This document shows, in pieces, positions 5,573 to 64,000 of a stretch of 64,000 bases of DNA. The stretch is taken from sequence record OK272472.1, one strand, 5' to 3'. This DNA is from Escherichia phage JLBYU28. A program made the translations under genes and the position numbers. The notes under the pieces were generated by a model. It saw only the letters and a list, made by a program, of their open reading frames with translations, was not told the origin of the DNA and made no database searches. Each line of letters opens with the position of its first letter. Position 1 is the stretch's first letter.

Positions 5573-5662
5573 TTTTAGAATCTCCTAGTTTAAGGACTTT
5601 ATTTAGTGGGAAGGTCATTCCCTCCCCGTTGATGTGTAATTTAATCTATCTAAAAACCAGTG
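5573..5662 (-). promoter_or_regulatory. family-A cassette copy 6 (TTGACA-17-TAAATT, hairpin, SD)
   Basis: Repeat alignment by eye. Confidence 0.55.
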
Positions 5663-5995
5663 TCAAACACTTTGTTTTCGTTTGCTCAATTCTTGAACAA
5701 TTACAGCGTGATAGTCTTTTAAGTCGCTGATATTTAAAGCATTTATCAGAGAATTATAATCATCAACTAACTGAAAATCGTCTTTGAAAATGTCGCTAAT
5801 CTGATAAGTTCTTGCCCGAAATCTGAAGCTCATCTCTAGCCGCTTTAATTGCTCATCACTTAAACGCTCTAGAAAGCTCATTACAAGGTTATTGCTGACC
5901 TGTTGTGTGATTACCTTACTTGCTAGATTATAGGCGCTGTACGCCTTATATAGCGCCATAATAGCGATAATTGCAGTGATGCCTATCATTAGCAT
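5663..5995 (-). CDS. hypothetical protein (110 aa) with N-terminal transmembrane segment
   Basis: Hydrophobic N-terminus MLMIGITAIIAIMALY. Confidence 0.5.
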   Translation of the reverse strand: MLMIGITAIIAIMALYKAYSAYNLASKVITQQVSNNLVMSFLERLSDEQLKRLEMSFRFRARTYQISDIFKDDFQLVDDYNSLINALNISDLKDYHAVIVQELSKRKQSV

Positions 5996-6285
5996 GGTGC
6001 TTCCTCTTTACGTGACACTTTGCCATTTACAGTTATCTCATAAGATTCTAATAAGTCACTTTTAGACTTTACTGGACTTTTAAAAGTATCATCATAAACA
6101 TTAATTTGCAATACAGGTTTTTTATACTCCCTGCAACTATTCCATAAGCAAATCACTACACGACGGCCATTTATTTTCCCGTGTAACCATTCCATAACCT
6201 CATGAGTATTTCTTGATGTTTCAATAAAATCAATTTTGTTGAGTAATTTGCTAAGGTTTTCCCTAACTTTATTTGATAATTTCAT
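5989..6285 (-). CDS. hypothetical small protein (98 aa)
   Basis: ORF behind family-B cassette. Confidence 0.5.
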   Translation of the reverse strand: MKLSNKVRENLSKLLNKIDFIETSRNTHEVMEWLHGKINGRRVVICLWNSCREYKKPVLQINVYDDTFKSPVKSKSDLLESYEITVNGKVSRKEEAPC

Positions 6286-6373
6286 TTTTGAATCTCCAGT
6301 TTAGGATTGAGTGGTAAAACTCTTTATCTGGGGCTTAAGGTATCAGCTTTTAAGCCCCTTGTAAAGTACTTTA
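6286..6373 (-). promoter_or_regulatory. family-B cassette copy 3 (diverged loop)
   Basis: Repeat alignment by eye. Confidence 0.45.
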
Positions 6374-6664
6374 TTACTTAATTTTCAGCTTTGCATAACT
6401 TCTCATTGTACGAATGGGGGATGTTAATGCTACGCGTCTAATGTATGCCTTTTTCGTGTATACATTTGTCTTCCCGATAGTGTTTACACATGTAAAAAGG
6501 TTTATCGGTGAATTTTTTAACTTCAACTGTTTATCAACCTTCACGCCCCACCTTACAGCAGATTGTTTTCCATTGTCAACCACTTTCCCGCATAACTTTT
6601 TAGCCATAACGCGAGCGTCATCACGAGTCTTTGCAGTAATTACAACGTTTTTAATAATAGCCAT
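6374..6664 (-). CDS. hypothetical basic small protein (96 aa)
   Basis: ORF behind family-B cassette. Confidence 0.5.
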   Translation of the reverse strand: MAIIKNVVITAKTRDDARVMAKKLCGKVVDNGKQSAVRWGVKVDKQLKLKNSPINLFTCVNTIGKTNVYTKKAYIRRVALTSPIRTMRSYAKLKIK

Positions 6665-6752
6665 CTTTGAATCTCCAATTTAGGATTGAGTGGTAAAGCT
6701 CTTTATCTGGGGCTTACTTTATCGAACTATAAGCCCCTTGTAAAGTACTTTA
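6665..6752 (-). promoter_or_regulatory. family-B cassette copy 4
   Basis: Repeat alignment by eye. Confidence 0.5.
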
Positions 6753-7133
6753 TCAGTTAATTTTGAAGATAGTTACATAACCATCGCTACCAATGATTTG
6801 CGACACTCCCGCTTTTTCTACTGAATAGCCCATATTTTCAAGATGATAAACAGCATCATCATAACCATATGCGCCACCCTGATAACGTCTTTTGTCGCAG
6901 CTTATCAGTTTTTTCCCACGTCCTGCAAGTGCATTCAGTACAGCTTTTTCACTTGATAGCGTACCATCTAACATGGTTGCCGTGTAATGGTTGATTCTGT
7001 TCCCGTTAATATCATACTTAAAATTGAATGCGTGAACAACGATAATGTTACCTTTAAAATTTTCATCAAGTGACTTCTCCAGTGCGTTGCGAAAGTTGTC
7101 TTTGTTGATGAATTTAGGTGCACGATATGCCAT
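6753..7133 (-). CDS. hypothetical protein (126 aa)
   Basis: ORF behind family-B cassette. Confidence 0.5.
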   Translation of the reverse strand: MAYRAPKFINKDNFRNALEKSLDENFKGNIIVVHAFNFKYDINGNRINHYTATMLDGTLSSEKAVLNALAGRGKKLISCDKRRYQGGAYGYDDAVYHLENMGYSVEKAGVSQIIGSDGYVTIFKIN

Positions 7134-7222
7134 TTTTGAATCTCCTAGTTTAAGGTTAGCTAATAAAACTCTTTATCTGGGGCTTACTTTATCGAACTAT
7201 AAGCCCCTTGTAAAGTACTTTA
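7134..7222 (-). promoter_or_regulatory. family-B cassette copy 5
   Basis: Repeat alignment by eye. Confidence 0.5.
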
Positions 7223-7429
7223 TTAGATATCGTAGTAATAAACTGCTGTCTGTCTTATGTGCTTTCTTGTATTTCTTGTAAGGTAGCAATTAGAATTAAT
7301 AGCCGTCTCTACATAGTTGCAGTAGTCAGCTTCTGATATTCTGGACCATGCGCCACATACTTGCATGTAAAAACGTTTTACCTTTGTGTTAACGTTAGTT
7401 GTAACCATCAATTCACGACTATAAAGCAT
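7223..7429 (-). CDS. hypothetical small protein (68 aa), first gene of the early array
   Basis: ORF; upstream on minus strand is TTGACT-17-TAATAT (about 7475-7503). Confidence 0.5.
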   Translation of the reverse strand: MLYSRELMVTTNVNTKVKRFYMQVCGAWSRISEADYCNYVETAINSNCYLTRNTRKHIRQTAVYYYDI

Positions 7430-7659
7430 TTTCGATTCTCCAGTTTAGGCAGTGGGCTTGCTTGCCCGTCTGATGCAAATATTAGATAACCATACTCAAA
7501 GAGTCAATAGGAATTTTAAAAATATTTTTGGCAAAAATGTAATGAAACGGGTGCGCGCGACTACCACAAAACAGAACTACAATCAAGAATTATTTTTCAA
7601 TCCGCTACAAATTTTTCTGTTGACTTTTATTTCCAGATGTGGTAGCCTTGTGAGAAATG

Positions 7660-7870
7660 GCGACATCCCCACCTGCACCCACCTACCTGCACAATTCTAA
7701 AATGATTTTTCTTGCCCGACCTGAGCGGGGTCTGCACGTTTTGAAAATGAAAAAGCTCTTTGGAGATTACCTGCACAGTTTGAAAATGAATTTTCTCTTT
7801 GGAGTTCAAAATTTTCTCTACAGATTTCTGTCCAGAACTCTACCTGCACAATCCTGAAATGAAAAAGCCC
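7660..7870. repeat. array of 4-5 degenerate direct repeats, consensus about CCTGCACA-N6-GAAAATGAA
   Basis: Repeat units begin near 7686, 7732, 7770, 7842; the track ORFs across this stretch owe their recurring LHxxKM peptides to the DNA repeat. Confidence 0.55.
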
Positions 7871-47919: not shown

Positions 47920-47950
47920 AAAAGGCTCCCGTAAAAAGGAGCCTTAAAAT
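47920..47950. terminator. bidirectional rho-independent terminator between convergent blocks
   Basis: GGCTCC-CGTAAAAA-GGAGCC hairpin (47924-47943) flanked by T-runs on both strands. Confidence 0.7.
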
Positions 47951-47951
47951 T

Positions 47952-48323
47952 TTATTTTTCAGTATTCTTTGTGTTCTTTTCAGTAATAGCTTGGAGGGCT
48001 GATACTGATTGAGCCAGATTATTAACACTATCAGAGAATTTATCAAGAGTCTTAGTAAGTTTTGCGTTTTCCCCTTTAACGTTCTCTAACTGAACTTTCT
48101 GGTTCTCCATCCCTAACTGAAGCAGTCTCATATCAGACTGCAAATCACGAATAGCTGAGTAATTAGATTTACTATAATTATCTAGCTGCTGTAATTTTGT
48201 TGTGACAGACACTTCTTGCTTACCACTTGAAACTTGCATAGTGGTATACATCCCAATAACACTAAAAATACCAACAACAATTGCACCAATATTATTTTTA
48301 AAAGCTTCCTCTAGCCACTTCAT
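47952..48323 (-). CDS. membrane-anchored coiled-coil protein (123 aa)
   Basis: N-terminal TM segment IGAIVVGIFSVIGMY then heptad-like region. Confidence 0.45.
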   Translation of the reverse strand: MKWLEEAFKNNIGAIVVGIFSVIGMYTTMQVSSGKQEVSVTTKLQQLDNYSKSNYSAIRDLQSDMRLLQLGMENQKVQLENVKGENAKLTKTLDKFSDSVNNLAQSVSALQAITEKNTKNTEK

Positions 48324-48518
48324 TTATTTCTCCCCCTTAAAAGCTTTCTCTAAGTTATCTACGAACTCATCATCAATAGGTGTGTCTGTTTTACTCGCAA
48401 GGTATCTTGCAAGCTTAAAGAACACTTTCTCAATCATGTATTCACTCAGCAGGGATAAAATGAGTTTCCAGAAGAAACTACCTAGATTTTTTAGAAGAAT
48501 TGCTAGGATTGTAGGCAT
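48324..48518 (-). CDS. small membrane protein (64 aa)
   Basis: Hydrophobic N-terminal half. Confidence 0.4.
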   Translation of the reverse strand: MPTILAILLKNLGSFFWKLILSLLSEYMIEKVFFKLARYLASKTDTPIDDEFVDNLEKAFKGEK

Positions 48519-48597: not shown

Positions 48598-51123
48598 TTA
48601 AGCAGTTCTCACCCAAGCCATTAACTTATAGAACTGGTTAGTTACGCTAAATGCTGAACCAGAACCTGTACCTCCAGTGTTACCACTCACTGTATGGCTG
48701 TGAGCACCAATACCAACAGTGTGAGCATGGTTTCCGTTAGAGGCAGCAGTACCAGACACAGTGTGTGAGTGATTCCCAGCAGCTCCTGACGTGCCATTAA
48801 ACGATGGGTTGTCAAAGCCTGTTTTACCGGTTTCACTGTTCGTTCTGGCATTACCCCTGTAAATGGTATGTGTATGGTTACCTGTTGTGTTCGTTGAACC
48901 ACTCACTGAGTGGGTGTGAGCACCAGTAGTGTTAGTGGTTTTAGTTCCATAGTCAAAGCTAGAGGTTGTTGCAGAGAAACTATGAGTGTGTGAAGGTAAG
49001 TTTCCAACTGCTAACGTAACAGAATCCGACCCACCAGTGGTAGCAACATCTGAACCATTTGCTGCTGCAATTCTGATAGTTCTACCAACACCATTGTTCA
49101 GGTACGTCCAAGTTAATCCAGGAAGTGCGGTATTAGGGTTAACATTACTGTTAAACCACGTTACGATACCTACTGGATAGATTTTATTCAGGTCTGTAGA
49201 GTCACTTACTGCCTGTGCAATCTTCTGGTCAGTTTCTGCTTTAGTGTATGCACCGATATCTGAAGGGGTTGGTTTTTGCATATTTGTGTAGTATTTTGCA
49301 ATTGTACCCTTTACAATACCTTGCGGAGCGTCATCAAATGTTTGTGGTACTCCAAACAACTGCACACCTGCATTACTAGTATATTGGACTCTTGATGTTG
49401 TACCATTCTGGAACGCACCGACCTTACAGTAAATATCATAAGTGTCTCCAGAAGTATTCACAGAGCCGATATCCGTAATAATGGGATTCTTCGAGTTTTT
49501 CCAAGCAACAATATTTAAACCCTTTGGGCTCCCATTCCCCGTTCTGAGAACAATTTCCGTTTTACAAGCTTGGTCAAGTACACCATAGTTAAAGCCTGAC
49601 CCACCAAACACTTCAATCACCGCAGTAGATGCGGATTGCGGCATTACAACAGTAGCAATTTTAGCCCACTTTTCATCGTCTCCATTATTGAAGTTAGTAC
49701 TTCCGATTCTCAGGTATCTACTATCACTAGCACTTTGAGTAAAGTATCTAGCATCTAAGTTAGAGAAATCTGAAGGTTGAATCTGCCCTGCTAGGGTTAA
49801 TGTCTTATTGATACTTGCAGTTGAGTTACCTAAAATTAACTGAGTGCCAGAGAAGCTGTTGTTTAAGGCTACATCAGTAGAATTTGGGCCACCAACACCT
49901 ACCCACCATCTTGATGCATTGGCAGCGTCCTTACCACGAATATACAATGGCCTACTCTGAGTAGAGTTTTTAATAACTAAACCTTCGCCATCACTAACAA
50001 CTGTTTGCGCACCATTAAAAGTATTTTGTGTATTAGTTCTTGCAATCGTACTTAATGTTGCTGCCGGAATATATCTAGAGTCAATGTTAGAGAAATCTGA
50101 GGGTTGAACCTGCCCAGTGATTTGCACGGTTTTATTGATACCAATAGTTGTACCTAGTGAAACCCGCGAACCTGTAAGGTAGTTATAAATGTTTAGACGT
50201 GTATCTTCAGAATCTGTACCAACATACCATTTATTTGTTCCATCAGACTTCTTACCGAGAATGTAAAGTGGTGTACTTGCATCAGTATTCTGCAAAGTAA
50301 GAGCATTAGCGTTCTTCTTAACAACAAGGTTAGTGAAAGTATTAGCACCTGTAAAAGTGTTATCCCCAGCTAACTGTGCAAATCTCTGATTAGCAACTGT
50401 CTGAGTAAAGTATCTATCATCTAAGTTAGAGAAATCAGAAGGTTGGACTTGACCAGTGATTACTAAAGATTTATTAACAGAAATATTACTTGCAACAGTC
50501 AAGGCTGAGTCGTATTTGTTGTTATACAGGTTTACTGTATCACCGCCATTGCGACCAATACCGACCCACCATCTAGCCGAACCATCTAGGTCTACACCTT
50601 CAATATATTGTGCATTATTTGCATTTTGGTTTCTAAGGCGAAGTAAGTTAGCATCACCTTGAATTTGCTGAGTCCCAGAGAATGTGTTTGTGACAGCAAG
50701 TCTTGCATATCTTGCGTCATTCTCTTCATTAGTTCTCATACCAAGCTCATTAGGACTTGGCTTATTCAGAGTATGATAGACAGTTGCAGACCTTGAAGCA
50801 TCTGCAATAGTTAGTTTAAGACCATTTGCATTAATTTTAAAAGTCTTTAAAACATCCCCCATAGTAATCTCAGAAGAGCCTGTAGGGTCAAAGACTGCCT
50901 TACCACCATAAAGTAACTTAACAATCCCTAAGTCACCAGTCATAGTACTACCAGCAATCTGAACAAATCTTTCAAGCTTAAAAGATGCTAAGAAATCTTG
51001 ATAGGTCATTCGACGGTCTTCATCACCCAGCATTTCAGGTCTCTTTTTAACCCTGACATGAAGAAGGTCATCTGAACGGATTGTATCGATTGAGTTTAAT
51101 TCACTCAACTTGTAATCTGCCAT
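48598..51123 (-). CDS. long tail fibre protein with three internal ~100-aa repeats and C-terminal His-box (HTH/HSH) region
   Basis: QPSDFSN(L/I)D(S/A)RY(F/I) seen three times; C-terminus GAHTHSVSGSTNTTGNHTH ... HSHTVSG. Confidence 0.7.
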   Translation of the reverse strand: MADYKLSELNSIDTIRSDDLLHVRVKKRPEMLGDEDRRMTYQDFLASFKLERFVQIAGSTMTGDLGIVKLLYGGKAVFDPTGSSEITMGDVLKTFKINANGLKLTIADASRSATVYHTLNKPSPNELGMRTNEENDARYARLAVTNTFSGTQQIQGDANLLRLRNQNANNAQYIEGVDLDGSARWWVGIGRNGGDTVNLYNNKYDSALTVASNISVNKSLVITGQVQPSDFSNLDDRYFTQTVANQRFAQLAGDNTFTGANTFTNLVVKKNANALTLQNTDASTPLYILGKKSDGTNKWYVGTDSEDTRLNIYNYLTGSRVSLGTTIGINKTVQITGQVQPSDFSNIDSRYIPAATLSTIARTNTQNTFNGAQTVVSDGEGLVIKNSTQSRPLYIRGKDAANASRWWVGVGGPNSTDVALNNSFSGTQLILGNSTASINKTLTLAGQIQPSDFSNLDARYFTQSASDSRYLRIGSTNFNNGDDEKWAKIATVVMPQSASTAVIEVFGGSGFNYGVLDQACKTEIVLRTGNGSPKGLNIVAWKNSKNPIITDIGSVNTSGDTYDIYCKVGAFQNGTTSRVQYTSNAGVQLFGVPQTFDDAPQGIVKGTIAKYYTNMQKPTPSDIGAYTKAETDQKIAQAVSDSTDLNKIYPVGIVTWFNSNVNPNTALPGLTWTYLNNGVGRTIRIAAANGSDVATTGGSDSVTLAVGNLPSHTHSFSATTSSFDYGTKTTNTTGAHTHSVSGSTNTTGNHTHTIYRGNARTNSETGKTGFDNPSFNGTSGAAGNHSHTVSGTAASNGNHAHTVGIGAHSHTVSGNTGGTGSGSAFSVTNQFYKLMAWVRTA

Positions 51124-51173
51124 TATTTTTGTCCTCTAGAAAGAGGGCTATACAGCCCCCTGTAAAAGAATTT

Positions 51174-52343
51174 TTAAGCGGTTCTTTGCCATACATAAAC
51201 TACAAAAGATGGTTGCTCAACACTAAATGCTTGACCAGCACCAGTAGCACCAGTAGTACCTGAATGGGTGTGTTCTCCAGCTCCAGTAACACTAACCGTT
51301 ACATTGTGTGAATGCGCTCCGATAGCAACAGTGTGTGAGTGTGAACCAATAGCCACCGTGTGATTATGGTTACCATTGGATGCAGCAGTACCACTAATGG
51401 AGTGAGAGTGGTTACCAGCACTATCTGTCTGAACGGTATTCCTGTGCCCATCCCTATCCCAGTCACCTGACGCACCAGTAGCTTGGTAACCAGTGACATA
51501 GCCATGTGTGTGAGCACCTGTTGTATTTGTTGAACCACTCACTGAGTGGGTGTGAGCACCAGTAGTGTTTGTGGTCTTAGTACCGTAATCAAATGATGAG
51601 GTTGATTTAGTACCATAATCAAACGTACTAACTGAGACATTTGCACCATGATTATGATTTCCACCTGCTAGGTAGATAGAATGACTGTGCGATGGTAAGT
51701 TGTTGCTAGATAAGCTAATACTACTTGAGCCAAAGTTACTACCAACTGGCCTAGAAGCACTATCATAACCTACAAGTGCTCTTCCTCTTGAAACTAACTC
51801 CCAAGTACCTCCACAAATTAAATATGTAGAGGGGTTTGCAGGATTCATAGAGAGATGGATAGTACCTACTGGATAAGAAGCCTGAACAGCCTTGTACAAG
51901 TTATTTACTGCTCTTGCTGTAGCATACTTATCTGCATCTTCATTATAAAGGTTAGACGTTGTCCAGTTCTGGACATTACTTAAACCAACCTGTGCCTTAG
52001 TTGTATTGTGTGGGTTGCTCTTGTCATTAATATGCTGCTGAATAAGGCTATTAACCTCTTCTGAAGACATAATCTGTAGATTTGCTCTTGCCTCAGCTAC
52101 ATTAACAATATCTGATAAGTTATTTGCAGCAACTAACTGAAGAGCATTGATAACGTTATCTAAACCAATTTGTGTTTTAGTAACACCGTGGGGGTTATTT
52201 CTTAGGCTTGAGTGTGGAGCAAGTAATTGCTCAAGAGTACATCTCTTATCCTCAATACCCTGCTTAAGATGGAAGATATCACTAAGGTCAATTGGTAAGG
52301 CTGCTTGAGGCAAGGCACTAATTTGAATTTCACCTACTGCCAT
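51174..52343 (-). CDS. second tail fibre / receptor-binding protein with His-box region
   Basis: Shares the FDYGTKTTNTTGAHTHSVSGSTNTTG block and similar C-terminus with the 841-aa fibre. Confidence 0.65.
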   Translation of the reverse strand: MAVGEIQISALPQAALPIDLSDIFHLKQGIEDKRCTLEQLLAPHSSLRNNPHGVTKTQIGLDNVINALQLVAANNLSDIVNVAEARANLQIMSSEEVNSLIQQHINDKSNPHNTTKAQVGLSNVQNWTTSNLYNEDADKYATARAVNNLYKAVQASYPVGTIHLSMNPANPSTYLICGGTWELVSRGRALVGYDSASRPVGSNFGSSSISLSSNNLPSHSHSIYLAGGNHNHGANVSVSTFDYGTKSTSSFDYGTKTTNTTGAHTHSVSGSTNTTGAHTHGYVTGYQATGASGDWDRDGHRNTVQTDSAGNHSHSISGTAASNGNHNHTVAIGSHSHTVAIGAHSHNVTVSVTGAGEHTHSGTTGATGAGQAFSVEQPSFVVYVWQRTA

Positions 52344-52345
52344 TA

Positions 52346-60364
<8,019 letters not shown>

Positions 60365-60365
<1 letters not shown>

Positions 60366-60604
60366 TACATTTTTCCTGCTCTTCTAAGTTCGTTGTAAGC
60401 AATTTCCTCTTTATACGACCTCTGAATTTCAAGAAATTGTCTCAATGATAATAAATCAGAGAATGTCATAGCAAAGAGTTGGTCAAGTGTTTCTTTACAC
60501 CCTTCCATACCATAAATAGCAAGCACAAATTTCATCTCGTCTGCTTCTTCATAGGTTGCCTCTACAGCAGCATCAGTTAGTGGTGTCTGTAGAGTGTTAC
60601 CCAT
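60365..60604 (-). CDS. tail assembly chaperone, frameshift extension ORF (T-like)
   Basis: In -1 frame relative to upstream ORF; -1 frame open back through slippery site 60643-60649. Confidence 0.5.
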
Positions 60605-60606
60605 GT

Positions 60607-61005
60607 TTACTGAGAAGTTAGGCTTTTGAAAATGCTTGCTTCGAAAAAACTTCCGAAGTTTGCCTCCAGCGCAAATGCTAAGTAATCAATAAATTCACCA
60701 TAGTTTGCTTGGAAGTATGTATCGATATTAAGTGGGAAGTCGTCAACAGTTGCCCCTTGAAATAACAGGGTAGCCATTTCTTCAAGGTTAATTTCTTCAA
60801 TTCTGTCAAAACAAGCTTCAACAAGCTCTTTAAATGGAACCATTGGAGCTTCTTTCTTGCCCTTGTCAGTCAGACTTGATAGCATCTGTGCAAAGGTTGG
60901 AACAACAATTTTACCCAACTTCATAGACATCTTAATACCATCTCTTGCCCCAAGCAGAACGATATTTACTTTCTTACCATTAATTACTCTAAATTCTGTT
61001 TTCAT
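60607..61005 (-). CDS. tail assembly chaperone (G-like)
   Basis: Between tube and tape measure genes; contains slippery heptamer T_TTT_TTC. Confidence 0.55.
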   Translation of the reverse strand: MKTEFRVINGKKVNIVLLGARDGIKMSMKLGKIVVPTFAQMLSSLTDKGKKEAPMVPFKELVEACFDRIEEINLEEMATLLFQGATVDDFPLNIDTYFQANYGEFIDYLAFALEANFGSFFEASIFKSLTSQ

Positions 61006-61037
61006 TGTGATTCCTTAATACTTTTAAAAGAAACAAA

Positions 61038-61068
61038 AAAGGGGAAGACCTTTTAAAGTCTCCCCCTT
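61038..61068 (-). terminator. rho-independent terminator after tail tube gene
   Basis: Minus-strand GGGGGAGAC-TTTAAAAG-GTCTTCCCC followed by TTTTTT. Confidence 0.6.
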
Positions 61069-61078
61069 ATAGGATTTA

Positions 61079-61525
61079 TTAAACACTTGACGCTGGAATT
61101 GTAGAAGTGTAATCTAGCTTCTCACAACCAAAAATCCAAGTTTTAGAGTTCTGGTCACGACCAAGTTCAATCTGTGGTAACTCCTGCAACCAAGCGTTAA
61201 TACCAGTTGCCAGAACAGAGCCTGATGGGTCGTAGATTACGAAGTTAGAAGAGATATCTTCTTCAAGTTCCATATTGTCTTGTTTAGCTTGAATTGCAGA
61301 AAGCATCTGGTTAGAGAGAGAAGTCTGCATTAACTCAATCTCAATAGTACCTGTCTTGTCTGCATTTCTTGTCAGAGCAACCTGACCACCCGCACCAACA
61401 ACTGGTGTCACAAGTGGTGATGTTCTCTGTAGACGCAAGAATGAGTCTGGGGCAAAGCCTTCAATGGCAATACCATTCCAGCTACATACAACGTCTTTAG
61501 GGGAATATTGCTGATACATAGCCAT
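61079..61525 (-). CDS. tail tube protein
   Basis: 148 aa directly downstream of sheath gene. Confidence 0.55.
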   Translation of the reverse strand: MAMYQQYSPKDVVCSWNGIAIEGFAPDSFLRLQRTSPLVTPVVGAGGQVALTRNADKTGTIEIELMQTSLSNQMLSAIQAKQDNMELEEDISSNFVIYDPSGSVLATGINAWLQELPQIELGRDQNSKTWIFGCEKLDYTSTIPASSV

Positions 61526-61540
61526 TCCAATTTACCTCTA

Positions 61541-62893
61541 TTATTCGTAAGCCACTGTACCTTTCAAGTCAACATCCAAGATAGCCCCTGCTAAGATACC
61601 TGCAAAGGTAACATCTTTCAGGATACGTGCTTTCTTGTCTGCCAAAGCAACTTGAGAGGCTTTAGGAACATTAACTGTGTAAGATGACAGGAAGTTTCTG
61701 TTGACTGCTCTTTGCAGAGAGGTTTCAATGACTTGACGAATACGGGTAATACCAGTATCATCATAAGTAATCTTACCACCCTTCTGATTAATTAGCAAGT
61801 CTCTCAGAGAAGTTTTCAGGTCTGATTCTAACCAGTCAACACCACGGACGATATCAATCCATTCCCCACCAGAAGTAATCCCTCTACGAACCACTGGAAC
61901 ACCACCATCAAGGTCAATAAAGTTACAGTGACGTGCATCTAAAGCAGACTTCTGAATACTTGTCAGAGGTCTCTGATTAGATGGTTGTAGAGAAGCTGCT
62001 ACACCAGTTAGCTGAGCATTACCCCAAGCAATTGAGCCTGCATCATATGGAGCACCATAAGCAATGTATGCCATCTCTGGATAATCTTCTGCTGCTGCGT
62101 GATGCCACAAGCAAACTGTACGAGTGTACATATTCTTAGCAAGCTGTGCTGGAACATCATTTGCACTGGCTAATTCTGTACCTTGTAGGGCTGTTACATC
62201 AGAGTTAGCAGTGAAGAAGATTTTCTTACGAGCTTGAATCTCAGAAGCCATTGCTAAGACAAACTGTTGAGTTCTGTCTTCTGCTGCAATGAAATACCAG
62301 TCAGTTGAATAAGCTTCAATAGCTGCCAGAGCAGTTGATGCTGTATCAGCAGTTGTACTTGCAATATATACAGTCTGTGCTGTAGTTGTTACTTTCACAA
62401 AGTCATTATTACCAGCTTTGGTAATAATCATTGTGGCAGAAGCACCACTACCAGTTACGTTCACAGAAACCTTATCTTTGATTGTTGGGTCAGCTTCAAT
62501 CTGTGTTTTAAACTGTTGCAACACTACTTCAGCAGTGTCTGAGCTTTGTGCTGTATACTGGAATGGTTGAGAGATTCCACCACCAACAGCTACAGTAATT
62601 GAGTAGTCTGTGCTTTCAGTAACGGCATCAGGGATTGATACAGTGTACTGCATAGCACGTCTACCAATATAAAGCTGAGTTACTTTAGGAGTCTGACTCC
62701 AAAGTTGTTTAGCAGCCTTATATGCAGCAGACCTCTCATCGAAATCTTCAGCAACTTCAGTTAAGGAGGTGTAGCCACGTACTCTTTCTTCAAAGTTATC
62801 TGTTGAAGCTAAGAATAGTGGTAAACCAAAACCTTCTCTTGTAGTTCCTGCGGTGTTCAATGTAATATCTACATTAACAATTGGATTCCACAT
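61541..62893 (-). CDS. contractile tail sheath protein
   Basis: 450 aa immediately upstream of tube gene. Confidence 0.6.
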   Translation of the reverse strand: MWNPIVNVDITLNTAGTTREGFGLPLFLASTDNFEERVRGYTSLTEVAEDFDERSAAYKAAKQLWSQTPKVTQLYIGRRAMQYTVSIPDAVTESTDYSITVAVGGGISQPFQYTAQSSDTAEVVLQQFKTQIEADPTIKDKVSVNVTGSGASATMIITKAGNNDFVKVTTTAQTVYIASTTADTASTALAAIEAYSTDWYFIAAEDRTQQFVLAMASEIQARKKIFFTANSDVTALQGTELASANDVPAQLAKNMYTRTVCLWHHAAAEDYPEMAYIAYGAPYDAGSIAWGNAQLTGVAASLQPSNQRPLTSIQKSALDARHCNFIDLDGGVPVVRRGITSGGEWIDIVRGVDWLESDLKTSLRDLLINQKGGKITYDDTGITRIRQVIETSLQRAVNRNFLSSYTVNVPKASQVALADKKARILKDVTFAGILAGAILDVDLKGTVAYE

Positions 62894-63493
62894 TTATTTT
62901 ACCCCTTTGGAGTCTACATCTAGATGGATAGTATATTCTGGTGTCTCTTGTCCTTCTTCGTAAACCAACTCACCATCAACAATGACACGCTCAATAATAC
63001 TTCCACGTTCATCTTTCAGGACTGAGTTTTTTACAAGAGTTACAACAAGAGGTGCAGAATTTTCGAAATCTGTATTGAGATAAGTATAGTCATTCGGGAT
63101 AGCTCCAGTGTCTAGTACTGTGGCTCCTGTCTCTTCAAGGATTAAATCTCTGACTGAACTCATCTCTAATCGTTGTTTAAGCTCAAGCATAATACTATGA
63201 GCACCTTTACCATTTACCGTAATTAATACAGGAATCTGAAAAGCAATTCTGTAACAAACTACATCATCCTCAACAAACTTATCAAGAACCCAACCATAAG
63301 GTGTTGCAGCATCTTGACAATATACGGTAATAAATGGCTGGTCAGGTTTTAAACCTTTGTCATTTGAGTTATCAGAAGGGTAAGCTCTAATTACGTTTGG
63401 CCTATTATTTTTATCACGAGCTAGTCTGTGACCAATAACATCCACTAAGGTTCTAACTAGACCTTTTTCAAGTTCTGCTGTTTCTAACTGCAT
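62894..63493 (-). CDS. tail completion / neck-proximal protein (199 aa)
   Basis: Position upstream of sheath. Confidence 0.35.
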   Translation of the reverse strand: MQLETAELEKGLVRTLVDVIGHRLARDKNNRPNVIRAYPSDNSNDKGLKPDQPFITVYCQDAATPYGWVLDKFVEDDVVCYRIAFQIPVLITVNGKGAHSIMLELKQRLEMSSVRDLILEETGATVLDTGAIPNDYTYLNTDFENSAPLVVTLVKNSVLKDERGSIIERVIVDGELVYEEGQETPEYTIHLDVDSKGVK

Positions 63494-63869
63494 TCATTTT
63501 ATCCCTTCTAATAATGATATATTCATAATGGGACGTATGGACTAATTGCTGTGACCAATCCATAGTCATAAATACTTCATACTCATGACCATCAATCATA
63601 ACAATATCAGACTCATTCCACTCTACATCATCTGAAGTTCTAAGTTTATATGTGGTATACAGGATTCTTGTATCGGTAAGCCTGATACCTTCCGGTAAAG
63701 CAATCTGTGTACCATTCTTTACAGAACCTTTGATATATGGCTGGATATTACCTTTACAGTTAACCTCCACAATATCTTGTGAAGCTACCCAATCACCATC
63801 ATCGTTATAATAACCGTCTTCAGAGACTTTACGCTTTACTACAAAGCTGTGTCTGTTTAAGAGTCTCAT
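63468..63869 (-). CDS. tail completion / head-tail joining protein (133 aa)
   Basis: Position. Confidence 0.35.
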   Translation of the reverse strand: MRLLNRHSFVVKRKVSEDGYYNDDGDWVASQDIVEVNCKGNIQPYIKGSVKNGTQIALPEGIRLTDTRILYTTYKLRTSDDVEWNESDIVMIDGHEYEVFMTMDWSQQLVHTSHYEYIIIRRDKMNAVRNSRT

Positions 63870-64000
63870 TTCTTAATACCCTTCTTAGTAGAAATTTTAT
63901 AAGCAAGGTTATCCCTTAAGTCGCCTGTCTCAACAAGAGGTGCGTTAAAGCCTTTTTTCTTGACTGTGGAAGGTGCGTTAGGAGGGAGGATAGCAGAATT
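63866..64000 (-). CDS. 3' end of a minus-strand gene truncated by the window edge
   Basis: Open frame from 64000 down to TGA overlapping the next ATG (ATGA overlap at 63866-63869). Confidence 0.45.
   Translation of the reverse strand, partial: NSAILPPNAPSTVKKKGFNAPLVETGDLRDNLAYKISTKKGIKK

Follow-up and report, generated by a model that had tools for sequence, protein, structure and literature searches.

Tail-fibre genes of Escherichia phage JLBYU28: gp37-type tips and evidence for exchange of heads and rod units as cassettes

Two neighbouring genes in the stretch of Escherichia phage JLBYU28 DNA analyzed here (64,000 nt of record OK272472.1, below called the window) encode proteins of 389 and 841 aa that share a histidine-box module, and the longer protein also contains a triplicated repeat. 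The locus raises the question of what these proteins are, and whether the segments that they share, with each other and with the fibres of other phages, are sites of recombination between fibre genes.

Identity of the two genes and their tips

Both open reading frames lie on the minus strand, as do all features described below, exactly where the initial annotation had placed two adjacent tail-fibre genes. The 389-aa frame (51174..52343) is orthologous to gp26 of Bas63 and gp76 of Felix O1; it matches the PHROG tail fiber profile phrog_2097 (E 2e-143) and Pfam Gp10_C (E 1.5e-18), and its gene is 95.7% identical in nucleotides to that of Escherichia phage HK3. The 841-aa frame (48598..51123), orthologous to Bas63 gp27 and Felix O1 gp77, matches phrog_4277 over its full length, is 100% identical in amino acids to the "putative tail fiber protein" of Escherichia phage JLBYU28, and falls in P0001 (100% identity), one of 120 clusters of long fibres. 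Since the two genes upstream match Bas63 baseplate chains in PDB 9NDY, namely a 100-aa attachment point of the long fibre (52346..52648; chain S, 'LTF platform protein (gp025)', E 3e-65) and 'Wedge protein 1 gp024' (E 6e-184), synteny identifies the 389-aa frame as gp26, the short tail fibre (STF), and the 841-aa frame as gp27, the long tail fibre (LTF). On these sequence grounds JLBYU28 is a Felixounavirus, and the pair are its short and its long tail fibre; Bas63 (Escherichia phage JohannRWettstein) belongs to the same genus and shares the gene order wedge 2, wedge 1, LTF platform, STF, LTF. In virions of Bas63, gp26 and gp27 both show up as trimeric fibres (PMC12609058). The spacer between the JLBYU28 genes (51124..51173), as read from the sequence, holds the LTF ribosome-binding site and a small GC hairpin, which was below passing in a terminator scan of the JLBYU28 sequence; the equivalent site of wV8 carries a rho-independent terminator annotation.

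The STF begins with a genus-conserved baseplate-binding and helix-turn region (aa 1-145, 51909..52343), whose role is taken from Bas63 (PMC12609058); among 29 relatives, identity over aa 1-150 is 83-100% in most bins and 73% in the lowest. A gp10/gp12/gp37-type collar follows (aa 146-216, 51696..51908; Pfam PF21939), aligning to T4 gp10 and gp37 chains. The needle, delimited by the sequence and the alignment to PDB 2XGF, consists of a descending strand with FDYGTK repeats and four HxH motifs (H219, H230, H264, H278; 51504..51695) and an ascending strand with five (H312, H326, H335, H344, H358; 51264..51410), the DNA of the latter matching T4-like gp37 DNA at 72-85%. Between the strands lies the head, a putative receptor-binding tip (aa 281-311, 51411..51503, GYVTGYQATGASGDWDRDGHRNTVQTDSAGN), with 17-43% identity across relatives. 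The LTF ends in the same order. Its helix-turn linker and collar (aa 621-709, 48997..49263) align to the STF collar and are almost invariant across 28 LTFs, the PF21939 score of 23.3 bits being under the 27-bit Pfam cutoff. The descending strand (48868..48996) and the ascending strand (48688..48771; Pfam PF03335, phage fibre repeat) have three HxH motifs each (H712, H736, H750 and H785, H799, H808), and the putative receptor-binding head between them (aa 753-784, 48772..48867, TIYRGNARTNSETGKTGFDNPSFNGTSGAAGN) is at 0-30% identity with every one of the 29 relatives in the panel, is carried only by P0001 and P0020 among the 120 clusters, and is near-identical to P2-like fibres.

The T4 gp37 tip contains 7 Fe. 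STF aa 146-359 align to it (2XGF, E 5e-28) over 212 residues, with all seven T4 HxH motifs pairing with STF HxH motifs, and the LTF C-terminus aligns with E 5e-15. The likeness of the HxH boxes to the metal-binding tips of T-even fibres, pointed out in the initial annotation, is thus, as judged from these alignments, homology to the iron-binding needle of gp37. The HxH motifs, nine in the STF and six in the LTF, would hold metal ions in a stack along the threefold axis, giving up to nine sites and six sites, respectively; iron is the metal expected by analogy, and the trimer geometry would follow that of Bas63 and T4. In the AlphaFold monomer of the LTF, pLDDT is below 50 at aa 611-841 and the tip model is unusable.

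Tips of the gp37 kind in T4 and P2 need a gp38/Tfa-type chaperone, and no such gene was found in the 64,000-nt window. Could the 389-aa protein itself help to assemble the 841-aa fibre, as a chaperone or accessory factor, and not be a virion fibre? Besides the absence of a separate chaperone gene from the window, this would agree with the location of its gene directly upstream of the long-fibre gene and with the 9% coverage of gp76 in the Felix O1 proteome, under the threshold of that study (PMC3185647). We regard it as extremely unlikely, given that none of collar, needle and head is missing from the protein, which also has a conserved N-terminus, lacks similarity to Tfa, and carries a hypervariable, host-tracking head as in an adhesin, while Bas63 gp26 is a 430-A trimeric fibre bound to wedge 2A (PMC12609058). 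The original assignment of the 389-aa protein as a fibre is therefore retained, on its collar, needle and head and its synteny with gp26.

Repeated rod of the long fibre

The conserved N-terminal baseplate-binding region of the LTF (aa 1-136, 50716..51123), defined by identity to relatives, is 80-100% identical in amino acids in the closer ones, falling to 63% in the farthest, and 96-100% identical in nucleotides to BPS17L1. The triplication of about 100 aa marked by QPSDFSN(L/I)D(S/A)RY, which had been noticed in the initial annotation, is borne out: 74-nt direct-repeat cores at 49736, 50063 and 50402, spaced by 327 and 339 nt, delimit three units of 99, 113 and 109 aa that are pairwise ~40% identical, and Pfam PF20744 ('gp37 trimerization region') matches three times (E 2e-81). 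Two more, degenerate relatives of the linker motif lie at aa 121-139 (KPSPNELG...ARY) and aa 617-635 (KPTPSDIGAYTKAETDQKI).

Unit A (aa 137-235, 50419..50715, terminal linker QPSDFSNLDDRY) is an all-beta rod domain with a seven-strand pattern in the AlphaFold monomer (pLDDT 58-82), and its allele classes are bimodal among relatives. Unit B (aa 236-348, 50080..50418, terminal QPSDFSNIDSRY) has a wV8-like allele, codons 256-330 being 89-100% identical in nucleotides to wV8 and only 36-58% to BPS17L1. For unit C (aa 349-457, 49753..50079, terminal QPSDFSNLDARY; best PF20744 stretch aa 379-465), a close allele is absent from the relatives panel (best 71-93% per bin, most 31-67%). The distal beta module (aa 458-620, 49264..49752) is all-beta in the same model (pLDDT 60-85), has PHROG tail-fibre matches at aa 477-628, and is present only in the ~840-aa class of LTFs, to which that of JLBYU28 belongs; in the ~780-aa LTFs it is absent or replaced (nucleotide identity bins of 0-29%). 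Across relatives, the rod-unit profiles are block-wise, with conserved islands at the linkers, and support the exchange of repeat units as blocks at these linkers.

The common module and the variable heads

According to BLASTP, the STF and LTF are 41% identical across the C-terminal 263 aa (E 2e-36). Of the two C-terminal blocks originally described as near-identical, both of them short, TSSFDYGTKTTNTTGAHTHSVSGSTNTTG(A/N)HTH deserves the term, with 32 of 33 residues matching, and GNHSH..SGTAASNGNH.HTV.IG.HSHTV is ~80% identical. Their reflection in DNA, claimed at the same time, is real: 101 nt match at 85% (48868-48968 vs 51504-51604), two other matches cover 93 nt (73%) and 41 nt (78%), and an exact run extends over 41 nt (48893-48933 = 51529-51569), whereas in codon-shuffled controls such runs average 11 nt and never exceed 16. 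For the 33-codon block, nucleotide identity is 0.848, where the amino-acid sequences together with local codon usage predict 0.747 +/- 0.037 (P = 0.004); the similarity thus goes beyond protein constraint alone. In JLBYU28, STF and LTF have unrelated heads between their His boxes.

Among the 29 relatives, the head between the conserved His boxes is hypervariable, and at least 13 types of LTF head occur in the 120 clusters. The STF head type of JLBYU28 is also found in phages JH2 and HK3 (98%) and in mio and A132 (91%), and the P0047 LTF has a head related to it (25/31 residues by hand count). In some relatives the STF and LTF bear identical heads, one head type is on the STF in L019 and on the LTF in P0008, and the two genes share exact runs of 189 nt in BPS17L1, 113 nt in L014 and 51 nt in Felix O1; STF-LTF identity of the descending block within single genomes spans 0.41 to 0.98. 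The proposal that the shared modules are substrates of recombination thereby gains comparative support, and recombination in vivo between fibre genes may underlie these patterns. Since the heads of JLBYU28 are unrelated and its longest run is 41 nt, it is relatives, and not JLBYU28 itself, that show recent STF-LTF exchange.

The LTF head of JLBYU28 is part of a cassette common to fibre genes of P2-like phages (Peduovirus; 48758..48894; in blastn, 88% identity over 137 nt, 46 of which match exactly in one run). Its edges are the G-N-H-T-H and G-N-H-S-H boxes, with sharp DNA breakpoints, and inside it ~40 of 42 amino acids are identical (hand count), compared with just 45% over the whole alignment. 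The cassette occurs in prophage tail genes of 63 of 5,426 E. coli genomes, the single locus inspected being a P2-like prophage, and only 5 of 50,697 phage records contain the head (tblastn). The 88% identity indicates that the exchange was not recent. Some Felixounavirus LTFs bear a T4 gp37-type head, and the Felix-type head also occurs in Salmonella P2-like and T4-like phages; mosaic breakpoints at the His box, which the initial annotation had suggested looking for, are found in the cassettes shared with P2-like and T4-like phages. All this supports heads being cassettes swapped at histidine boxes. Head exchange may also change the host range, the evidence being that the Felix-type head goes with Salmonella hosts, 79 of its 85 records naming Salmonella; the head types of the JLBYU28 STF and LTF occur in E. 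coli phages and prophages.

An old duplication kept by purifying selection on the needle, without recombination between genes or phages, would also produce a common module. It would be consistent with the moderate identity of the JLBYU28 fibres over the module (just 41%), with synonymous differences at 10 of the 32 identical codons of the block, and with a mean STF-LTF identity of the descending block that is barely higher within genomes (0.604) than between them (0.594). But the exact runs of BPS17L1, L014 and Felix O1 span the hypervariable head, the codon-usage null is exceeded in relatives (P below 0.0002) as well as in JLBYU28, the same head type moves between STF and LTF, and identity to P2-like fibres drops sharply from ~90% to background at the His boxes; such a history is very unlikely and, for the genus, appears already largely refuted by these comparisons. 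Even less credible, indeed hardly at all, is that the similarity of the LTF head to P2-like fibres is an artefact, either an assembly chimera with prophage reads or a chance low-complexity match of G/S/T/N-rich sequence. JLBYU28 was grown on E. coli, the head region is compositionally biased and the match is short, but the independently deposited A132/A126 records are 96% identical to the 423-nt LTF 3' end containing the head and encode a nearly identical head, and the P2-like head is in frame between genus-typical His boxes. The prophage identity of 88%, not 100%, rules out read contamination, and the scarcity of phage records matching the head argues against a generic low-complexity match. 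As for the rod, the authors of the Bas63 study list mutational tolerance, host recognition or defence-system escape as explanations of LTF repeat variability, and the missing close allele of unit C would suit relaxed constraint and point mutation in place of cassette exchange. This is rather unlikely, because LTF identity profiles change in steps, from 100% down to 36-58% and up again to 100% over some tens of codons, and disagree between relatives (BPS17L1 matches unit A and the distal module, not B; wV8 matches A as well as B), the identities of units in register are bimodal, and one unit has shifted from position C to A (82% identity out of register vs 52% in register).

Hence we consider it highly probable that the STF and LTF are homotrimeric fibres with gp37-type tips, whose heads and rod units are exchanged as cassettes. 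The conserved N-terminus would anchor each homotrimer to the baseplate; in the tip, the collar would be followed by a six-stranded beta needle, to which each chain gives a descending and an ascending strand, and the ~31-aa head at the needle turn would contact the receptor. Conserved helix-and-turn linkers would connect the beta domains that make up the LTF rod, three of which are evident paralogous repeats. As the DNA of His-box strands and linkers is conserved and that of heads and beta units is not, homologous recombination there would exchange cassettes, both between the two fibre genes of a single genome and with related phages, P2-like prophages, and T4-like phages having the His-box framework. 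JLBYU28 combines an STF head of the JH2/HK3 type with an LTF head otherwise found in P2-like E. coli prophages, and with these unrelated types it probably shows two different receptor specificities; any receptor assigned to the STF or LTF would be putative.

Comparison with known fibres

The two-fibre architecture of Bas63 was published in 2025 (Sci Adv, PMC12609058; baseplate model PDB 9NDY). The fibres of Bas63 and JLBYU28, compared at the level of architecture, are alike in the conserved N-terminal baseplate-binding domain, the gp37-like collar, needle and head, and the LTF beta repeat domains joined by helix-and-turn linkers (PMC12609058), whereas their head sequences differ, and STF and LTF have 9 and 6 HxH motifs in JLBYU28 and 7 and 6 (with an HHxH) in Bas63. 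Genes 76/77 of Felix O1 share DNA repeats of 51 bp and 32 bp, and the gp76/gp77 C-termini are similar to T4 gp37 and the gpH of one P2-like phage (Whichard et al. 2010, PMC3185647). The 32-bp repeat sits within the 41-nt run of JLBYU28; however, Felix O1 has nearly one head on both fibres (2 aa differences), whereas neither of the two unrelated JLBYU28 heads is of this Salmonella-associated type.

The T4 gp37 tip (2XGF, Bartual et al. 2010) has a homologous collar, HxH needle and head, a similar head length (about 35 aa, versus 31-32 in JLBYU28) and a related C-terminal hydrophobic tail, but differs in the number of metal sites. In T4 it caps a kinked fibre of 145 nm made of four proteins and depends on gp38 and gp57A, whereas in Felixounavirus it caps single-protein straight fibres, with no gp38/Tfa homologue seen in the JLBYU28 window. 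The T4 short fibre gp12 has a tip of another kind, unlike both fibres of JLBYU28. The Bas63 authors compare the LTF repeats to the T4 gp34 rod (5NXH) (PMC12609058); our Foldseek search with the LTF monomer model yielded weak matches only (TM below 0.2), gp34 fragments included, and the LTF units differ in their length of about 100-113 aa and the distinctive QPSDFSN(L/I)DxRY linker.

The gpH of the P2 family (Peduovirus P24A7b, phage Chuche, E. coli prophages), which goes with the assembly protein gpG, is homologous at its C-terminus in collar, His-box needle and head, with ~88% DNA identity to the JLBYU28 LTF over the head and the His boxes next to it; the rest is unrelated, with 45% amino-acid identity in the tip flanks and none upstream. 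P2-like fibres have the T4-like end ...NIAFNYIVRLA, followed by a Tfa gene, whereas the JLBYU28 LTF ends in ...FYKLMAWVRTA without Tfa. In T-even adhesins, exchanges in or near conserved motifs are known (Tetart 1996/1998, as cited in PMC3157838). In those phages, short conserved motifs flank hypervariable segments and act as crossover points, as proposed here, and duplication or loss of motif units alters needle length, another likeness to the JLBYU28 fibres. Unlike the T-even case, the exchange in Felixounavirus would, judging by the sequences, also involve two paralogous fibre genes within one genome, and a virulent phage and temperate P2-like prophages.

The His-box tip shared by STF and LTF and the repeated rod domains are therefore already described for Felixounavirus, and most of what the initial annotation claimed is already published (Felix O1 in 2010; Bas63 in 2025; the principle by Tetart 1996/1998, as cited in PMC3157838). 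To this picture our analysis adds the hypervariability of the heads, the P2-like cassette of the LTF, the apparent movement of heads between STF and LTF, the tracking of Salmonella by a head type, and the probable exchange of rod units as blocks.

Fibre locus and flanking genes

Both fibre genes of Escherichia phage JLBYU28 lie on the minus strand, and the ORF calls fall at exactly the coordinates of the initial annotation: 51174..52343 for the short tail fibre (STF, 389 aa) and 48598..51123 for the long tail fibre (LTF, 841 aa). Three ORFs of 100, 285, and 489 aa are found upstream on the same strand. The 489-aa ORF encodes a Baseplate_J protein (Pfam), and the other two match chains of 9NDY, the baseplate model of Escherichia phage JohannRWettstein (Bas63), namely "Wedge protein 1 (gp024)" for the 285-aa product (E 6e-184) and "LTF platform protein (gp025)" for the 100-aa product (E 3e-65). 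The gene order, wedge 2, wedge 1, LTF platform, and then the fibres, is identical in BPS17L1, wV8, and Felix O1. By synteny, the 389-aa and 841-aa genes are assigned as gp26 and gp27 of Bas63, identified by cryo-EM as a 430-Å STF and a 630-Å LTF, respectively (PMC12609058). Megablast places the window in the genus Felixounavirus, that is, among the Felix O1-like myoviruses; its baseplate genes share ~97% identity with many records, whereas the fibre genes are only ~85-90% identical, and piecewise. The deposited "putative tail fiber protein" of JLBYU28 is the 841-aa LTF (100% identity); the JLBYU FhuA paper contains no description of this phage.

Two small ORFs of 64 and 123 aa follow the LTF gene in the same transcription unit (47952-48518, minus strand), neither with a Pfam family. 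The former belongs to phrog_402, and the latter, which combines a hydrophobic N-terminal segment with a coiled coil, to phrog_4038. The counterpart of the 123-aa ORF in BPS17L1 is labelled 'holin', yet the Felix O1 paper reports no holin-lysin cassette. The unit is separated from the convergent thymidylate synthase gene (td/frd side) by a perfect, GC-rich hairpin at 47922-47945 (AAGGCTCC...GGAGCCTT) with T-runs on both strands, which is likely a bidirectional terminator. It was the sole convincing terminator in a promoter and terminator scan of the region, where the counts were not above those in shuffles and the STF-LTF intergenic hairpin failed. The GC skew of the window changes sign twice, at ~38 kb and ~48 kb; the latter change coincides with the switch of transcription direction at the convergent td/fibre junction.

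Two tips of the T4 gp37 type

The initial annotation proposed that the two genes share a His-box module, and the comparison of their products agrees, with 41% identity across the last 263 residues (BLASTP, E 2e-36). Of the two terminal blocks that had been called near-identical, the first (TSSFDYGTKTTNTTGAHTHSVSGSTNTTG.HTH) indeed has 32 of 33 residues in common, but the second is only ~80% identical. The DNA common to both genes comprises three segments, of 101 nt (85% identity), 93 nt (73%), and 41 nt (78%); the longest exact run is 41 nt, compared with at most 16 nt in codon-shuffled controls. Given the two protein sequences and local codon usage as the null, the nucleotide identity of the 33-codon block is 0.848 against an expected 0.747 +/- 0.037 (P = 0.004), and therefore the DNA similarity, besides lying beyond chance, exceeds what protein constraint gives.

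The likeness of the HxH motifs (His boxes) to the metal-binding tips of T-even fibres, also suggested earlier, is borne out by alignment to 2XGF, the structure of the T4 gp37 tip. STF residues 146-359 align to chain residues 18-229 (E 5e-28), and each of the seven T4 HxH motifs has a counterpart there; LTF residues 710-820 align to residues 105-218 (E 5e-15). As read from the sequence, the STF motifs are H219, H230, H264, and H278 on the descending needle strand and H312, H326, H335, H344, and H358 on the ascending one; those of the LTF are H712, H736, and H750, and H785, H799, and H808, respectively. The descending and ascending counts are thus 4+5 in STF, 3+3 in LTF, and 3+4 in T4. The head, or receptor-binding tip, between the strands has 31 aa in STF and 32 aa in LTF. 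The STF collar matches the Pfam family PF21939 (Gp10_C) with 68.5 bits (cutoff 27). The LTF collar scores 23.3 bits, under this cutoff, and aligns to the STF collar; many LTF homologues have a precomputed PF21939 match. The significant homology to 2XGF identifies both tips as predicted members of the T4 gp37 type.

In a T4-type tip, six histidines per site coordinate octahedral Fe(II) in an intertwined homotrimer. By analogy with T4 and Bas63, each JLBYU28 fibre would be a trimer, in which the HxH motifs of the three chains would hold metal ions along the needle axis, at up to nine sites in STF and up to six in LTF, and the head would touch the receptor. The receptor of Felixounavirus is generally LPS (PMC8594841).

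An AlphaFold2 monomer of the LTF, built from a 28-sequence alignment, has a mean pLDDT of 51, and only the three repeat units and the module at aa 480-610 are confident parts. The tip (aa 611-841) is below 50, as expected when a single chain of an intertwined trimer is modelled, and we consider this model unusable for the His-box question. A Foldseek search with it against the PDB yielded T4 gp34 fragments, T7 gp17, and tailspike N-termini, all at TM <0.2 and rmsd >8 Å. These weak matches agree with the literature but are not decisive, so no argument rests on them.

The alternative that the 389-aa protein is a fibre chaperone is rejected on the 2XGF alignment, which includes the HxH strands and the 31-aa head; collar, needle, head, and synteny with Bas63 gp26 all point to a fibre. 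No Tfa-like chaperone was found in the 64-kb window, all but ~22 kb of the genome, by tblastn of two P2-like Tfa proteins (best E ~9), although a T4-type tip depends on a gp38/Tfa-family protein and on gp57A. The 64-aa and 123-aa ORFs were considered as head-specific chaperones and rejected: Pfam and PHROG scans revealed no chaperone, and the ORFs do not co-vary with head type, both being 90-100% conserved across the genus whatever the head.

Probable exchange of heads and rod units

The fibres were compared in a panel of 29 IMG/VR loci, supplemented by BPS17L1, wV8, Felix O1, one Peduovirus, one E. coli prophage, and the record "Campylobacter phage A132". In 30-residue bins, LTF residues 1-150, 601-750, and the last 60 are conserved among relatives; LTF residues 1-150 and STF residues 1-180 mostly share 80-100% identity with the window in closer relatives, falling to 63% in the most distant one. 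The LTF head bin (aa ~751-780) is at 0-30% identity to the window in every relative and the STF head bin at 17-43%. At least nine LTF and seven STF head types occur in the panel, and at least 13 among 120 LTF clusters of a large protein database, where the head type of the JLBYU28 LTF is found in only two, those of JLBYU28 and A132. The LTF frame is interrupted in two panel loci, L010 (541 aa) and L011 (453 + 311 aa), which are either sequencing frameshifts or real LTF-defective isolates.

A match to this rare head lies outside the genus. About 40 of the 42 residues of the LTF head and adjoining His boxes (TNTTGNHTHTIYRGNARTNSETGKTGFDNPSFNGTSGAAGNHSHTV; hand count) are the same as in the tail fibre of Peduovirus P24A7b, while the full alignment is at 45% identity. 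At the DNA level the match occupies 48758-48894 (137 nt at 88%, with a 46-nt exact run), starting in GGTAACCATACACAT (G-N-H-T-H) and ending at GGGAATCA (G-N-H); beyond either end, identity is at background. The comparison with relatives, a check proposed in the initial annotation, locates mosaic breakpoints at the His boxes, with the heads hypervariable between them. Among 50,697 phage records, tblastn finds this head in five, three P2-like and A132/A126; by Megablast, 63 of 5,426 complete E. coli genomes have it in prophage tail genes. The single prophage locus inspected is typically P2-like, and a tail-fibre assembly gene comes after its fibre gene.

Several side observations concern the records that carry these heads. 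In the P2-like prophage of E. coli Ecol_AZ159 (L035), which has the same head cassette, genes for an AAA-family ATPase (6486-7688) and a DUF4435 protein (5577-6479) sit between the fibre-assembly gene and the sheath gene, a 'hotspot' position where P2-type genomes typically hold a pair of anti-phage defence genes. The 'tail collar fiber protein' of Citrobacter phage phiNP (OR565852.1, 44.9 kb) has a head 64% identical to the JLBYU28 STF head; by this similarity, the putative cassette pool extends to another phage type, an unrelated phage of Citrobacter rodentium. The records MG065664.1 (L033) and MG065668.1, 'UNVERIFIED: Campylobacter phage A132/A126', are Felixounavirus genomes with Ounavirinae in the taxonomy line, 96.9% identical to 52346-64000 of the window and with the same STF and LTF heads; their assignment to a Campylobacter host seems doubtful. 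Felixounavirus fibre DNA is also matched by records under the names Staphylococcus and Listeria phage LPML1.

Heads are also shared between the two fibres of one genome. BPS17L1 and locus L014 each have STF and LTF heads of the same protein sequence, with exact DNA runs of 189 and 113 nt, respectively; the two Felix O1 heads differ at two residues, and the exact run there is 51 nt. These runs cover the head and the His boxes. Across genomes, one LTF cluster (P0008) has the very head that locus L019 has on its STF, and the head of another (P0047) matches the JLBYU28 STF head at 25 of 31 residues (hand count). Simple paralogy of the two tips does not predict the spread of STF-LTF identity within genomes, from 0.41 to 0.98 over the 87-nt descending block; sporadic gene conversion does. 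The earlier proposal that shared modules are substrates for recombination is supported by the identical heads and the 189-nt run, the His-box breakpoints in relatives, and the occurrence of the cassettes across phage lineages.

The distribution of heads follows the host. The Felix-type head was found at 141 places in 85 phage records, so most carry it on both fibres; 79 of the 85 are named Salmonella phages, and the effect of the head on host specificity is to this extent a correlation. The same head is present in the Salmonella P2-like phages SEN1/4/5, RE2010, and STYP1 and in a 169-kb Salmonella T4-like phage, and a T4 gp37-type head occurs on some Felixounavirus LTFs. The JLBYU28 STF shares its head with Escherichia phages JH2 and HK3 (98%), and the E. 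coli association of both JLBYU28 heads fits the recorded host. Judged from the head sequences, JLBYU28 has two different heads, as opposed to one in Felix O1, and so probably two specificities.

The rod of the LTF contains the triplicated ~100-aa repeat noted initially. Three 74-nt cores, spaced by 327 and 339 nt, bound units of 99, 113, and 109 aa (A, B, and C), which are ~40% identical pairwise and match PF20744 ("gp37 trimerization region") three times (E 2e-81). Degenerate related linkers also occur just before the first unit (aa 121-139) and before the collar (aa 617-635). In relatives, unit boundaries were taken as alignment columns, the regular expression for the linker being too narrow. 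In 15-codon DNA bins, the JLBYU28 LTF is 84-100% (mostly 93-100%) identical to that of BPS17L1 over codons 1-255, 36-58% over codons 256-330, 100% at the second linker (346-360), 38-58% over codons 376-450, and 100% at the third linker (451-480), then 80-100% up to the head. Against wV8, codons 256-330 are at 89-100%. In-register unit identities are bimodal (30-50% or 70-100%), and rod-unit breakpoints sit at linker islands. In one instance a unit has moved: unit A of locus L021 is 82% identical to unit C of BPS17L1 and at most 52% to any other unit A. The step-like, discordant profiles point to cassette exchange at the conserved QPSDFSN(L/I)DxRY linkers. The Bas63 authors described the domain variability as "not expected" and proposed mutational tolerance, host recognition, or defence escape (PMC12609058); recombination would be a simple account of what their study left open.

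A further LTF module (aa 458-620, window 49264-49752) is all-beta, has no Pfam family, and is modelled with moderate confidence (pLDDT 60-85). Among Felixounavirus LTFs, it was found in the ~840-aa class alone; in its place, LTFs of the ~780-aa class have a segment that is unrelated and ~60 aa shorter.

Precedents and implications

The fibre architecture itself is ordinary and rediscovers the published Felix O1-like arrangement, a known kind of system in a deposited phage; the STF/LTF module and its interpretation are correct but already published. Both C-termini in Felix O1 were reported to resemble T4 gp37, and gp77 to resemble the gpH fibre of a P2-like phage; in the proteome, gp77 was strongly and gp76 weakly detected (PMC3185647). 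The 51-nt exact run in Felix O1 was recovered independently here, and the 32-bp repeat published for that phage lies within the 41-nt run of the window. According to the account of Tetart et al. 1996/1998 given in PMC3157838, adhesin exchanges fall in or near conserved motifs. The present comparison adds mapped boundaries for the cassettes, a connection to P2-like prophages, evidence that heads convert between STF and LTF, and a recombination account of rod-unit variability. For Felixounavirus, we found no earlier description of heads exchanged between STF and LTF or of the connection to P2 prophages, which is weak evidence given thin coverage of the subscription literature.

Conserved His-box and linker DNA flanks hypervariable cassettes, and chimeras break in those motifs, both within and across phage families. 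The boundaries from His box to His box, 48758-48894 in the LTF and 51411-51503 for the STF head, are useful for host-range prediction and engineering. Natural exchanges at these boundaries gave viable fibres in three phage families, which suggests that heads are transplantable among Felixounavirus, P2-like, and T4-like scaffolds. The data further suggest that head type, not phage taxonomy, predicts Salmonella versus E. coli tropism in the genus.

A broader reading is that the His-box head cassettes form one host-tracking pool, common to virulent Felixounaviruses, temperate P2-like prophages, and T4-like phages and shuttling between STF and LTF too. Taken whole, with the prophage reservoir, the switch between one and two heads, and the shuffling of rod units, we regard it as evenly balanced between right and wrong. 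If it is true, rod beta units would shuffle at their linkers as heads do at the His boxes, accounting for the variability that surprised the Bas63 authors. Resident prophages would be a reservoir of host-matched heads for an infecting lytic phage, captured by recombination across some tens of bases. The same head on both fibres, as in Felix O1 and most Salmonella members, versus two heads, as in JLBYU28, would then be an evolvable switch between single- and dual-receptor adsorption.
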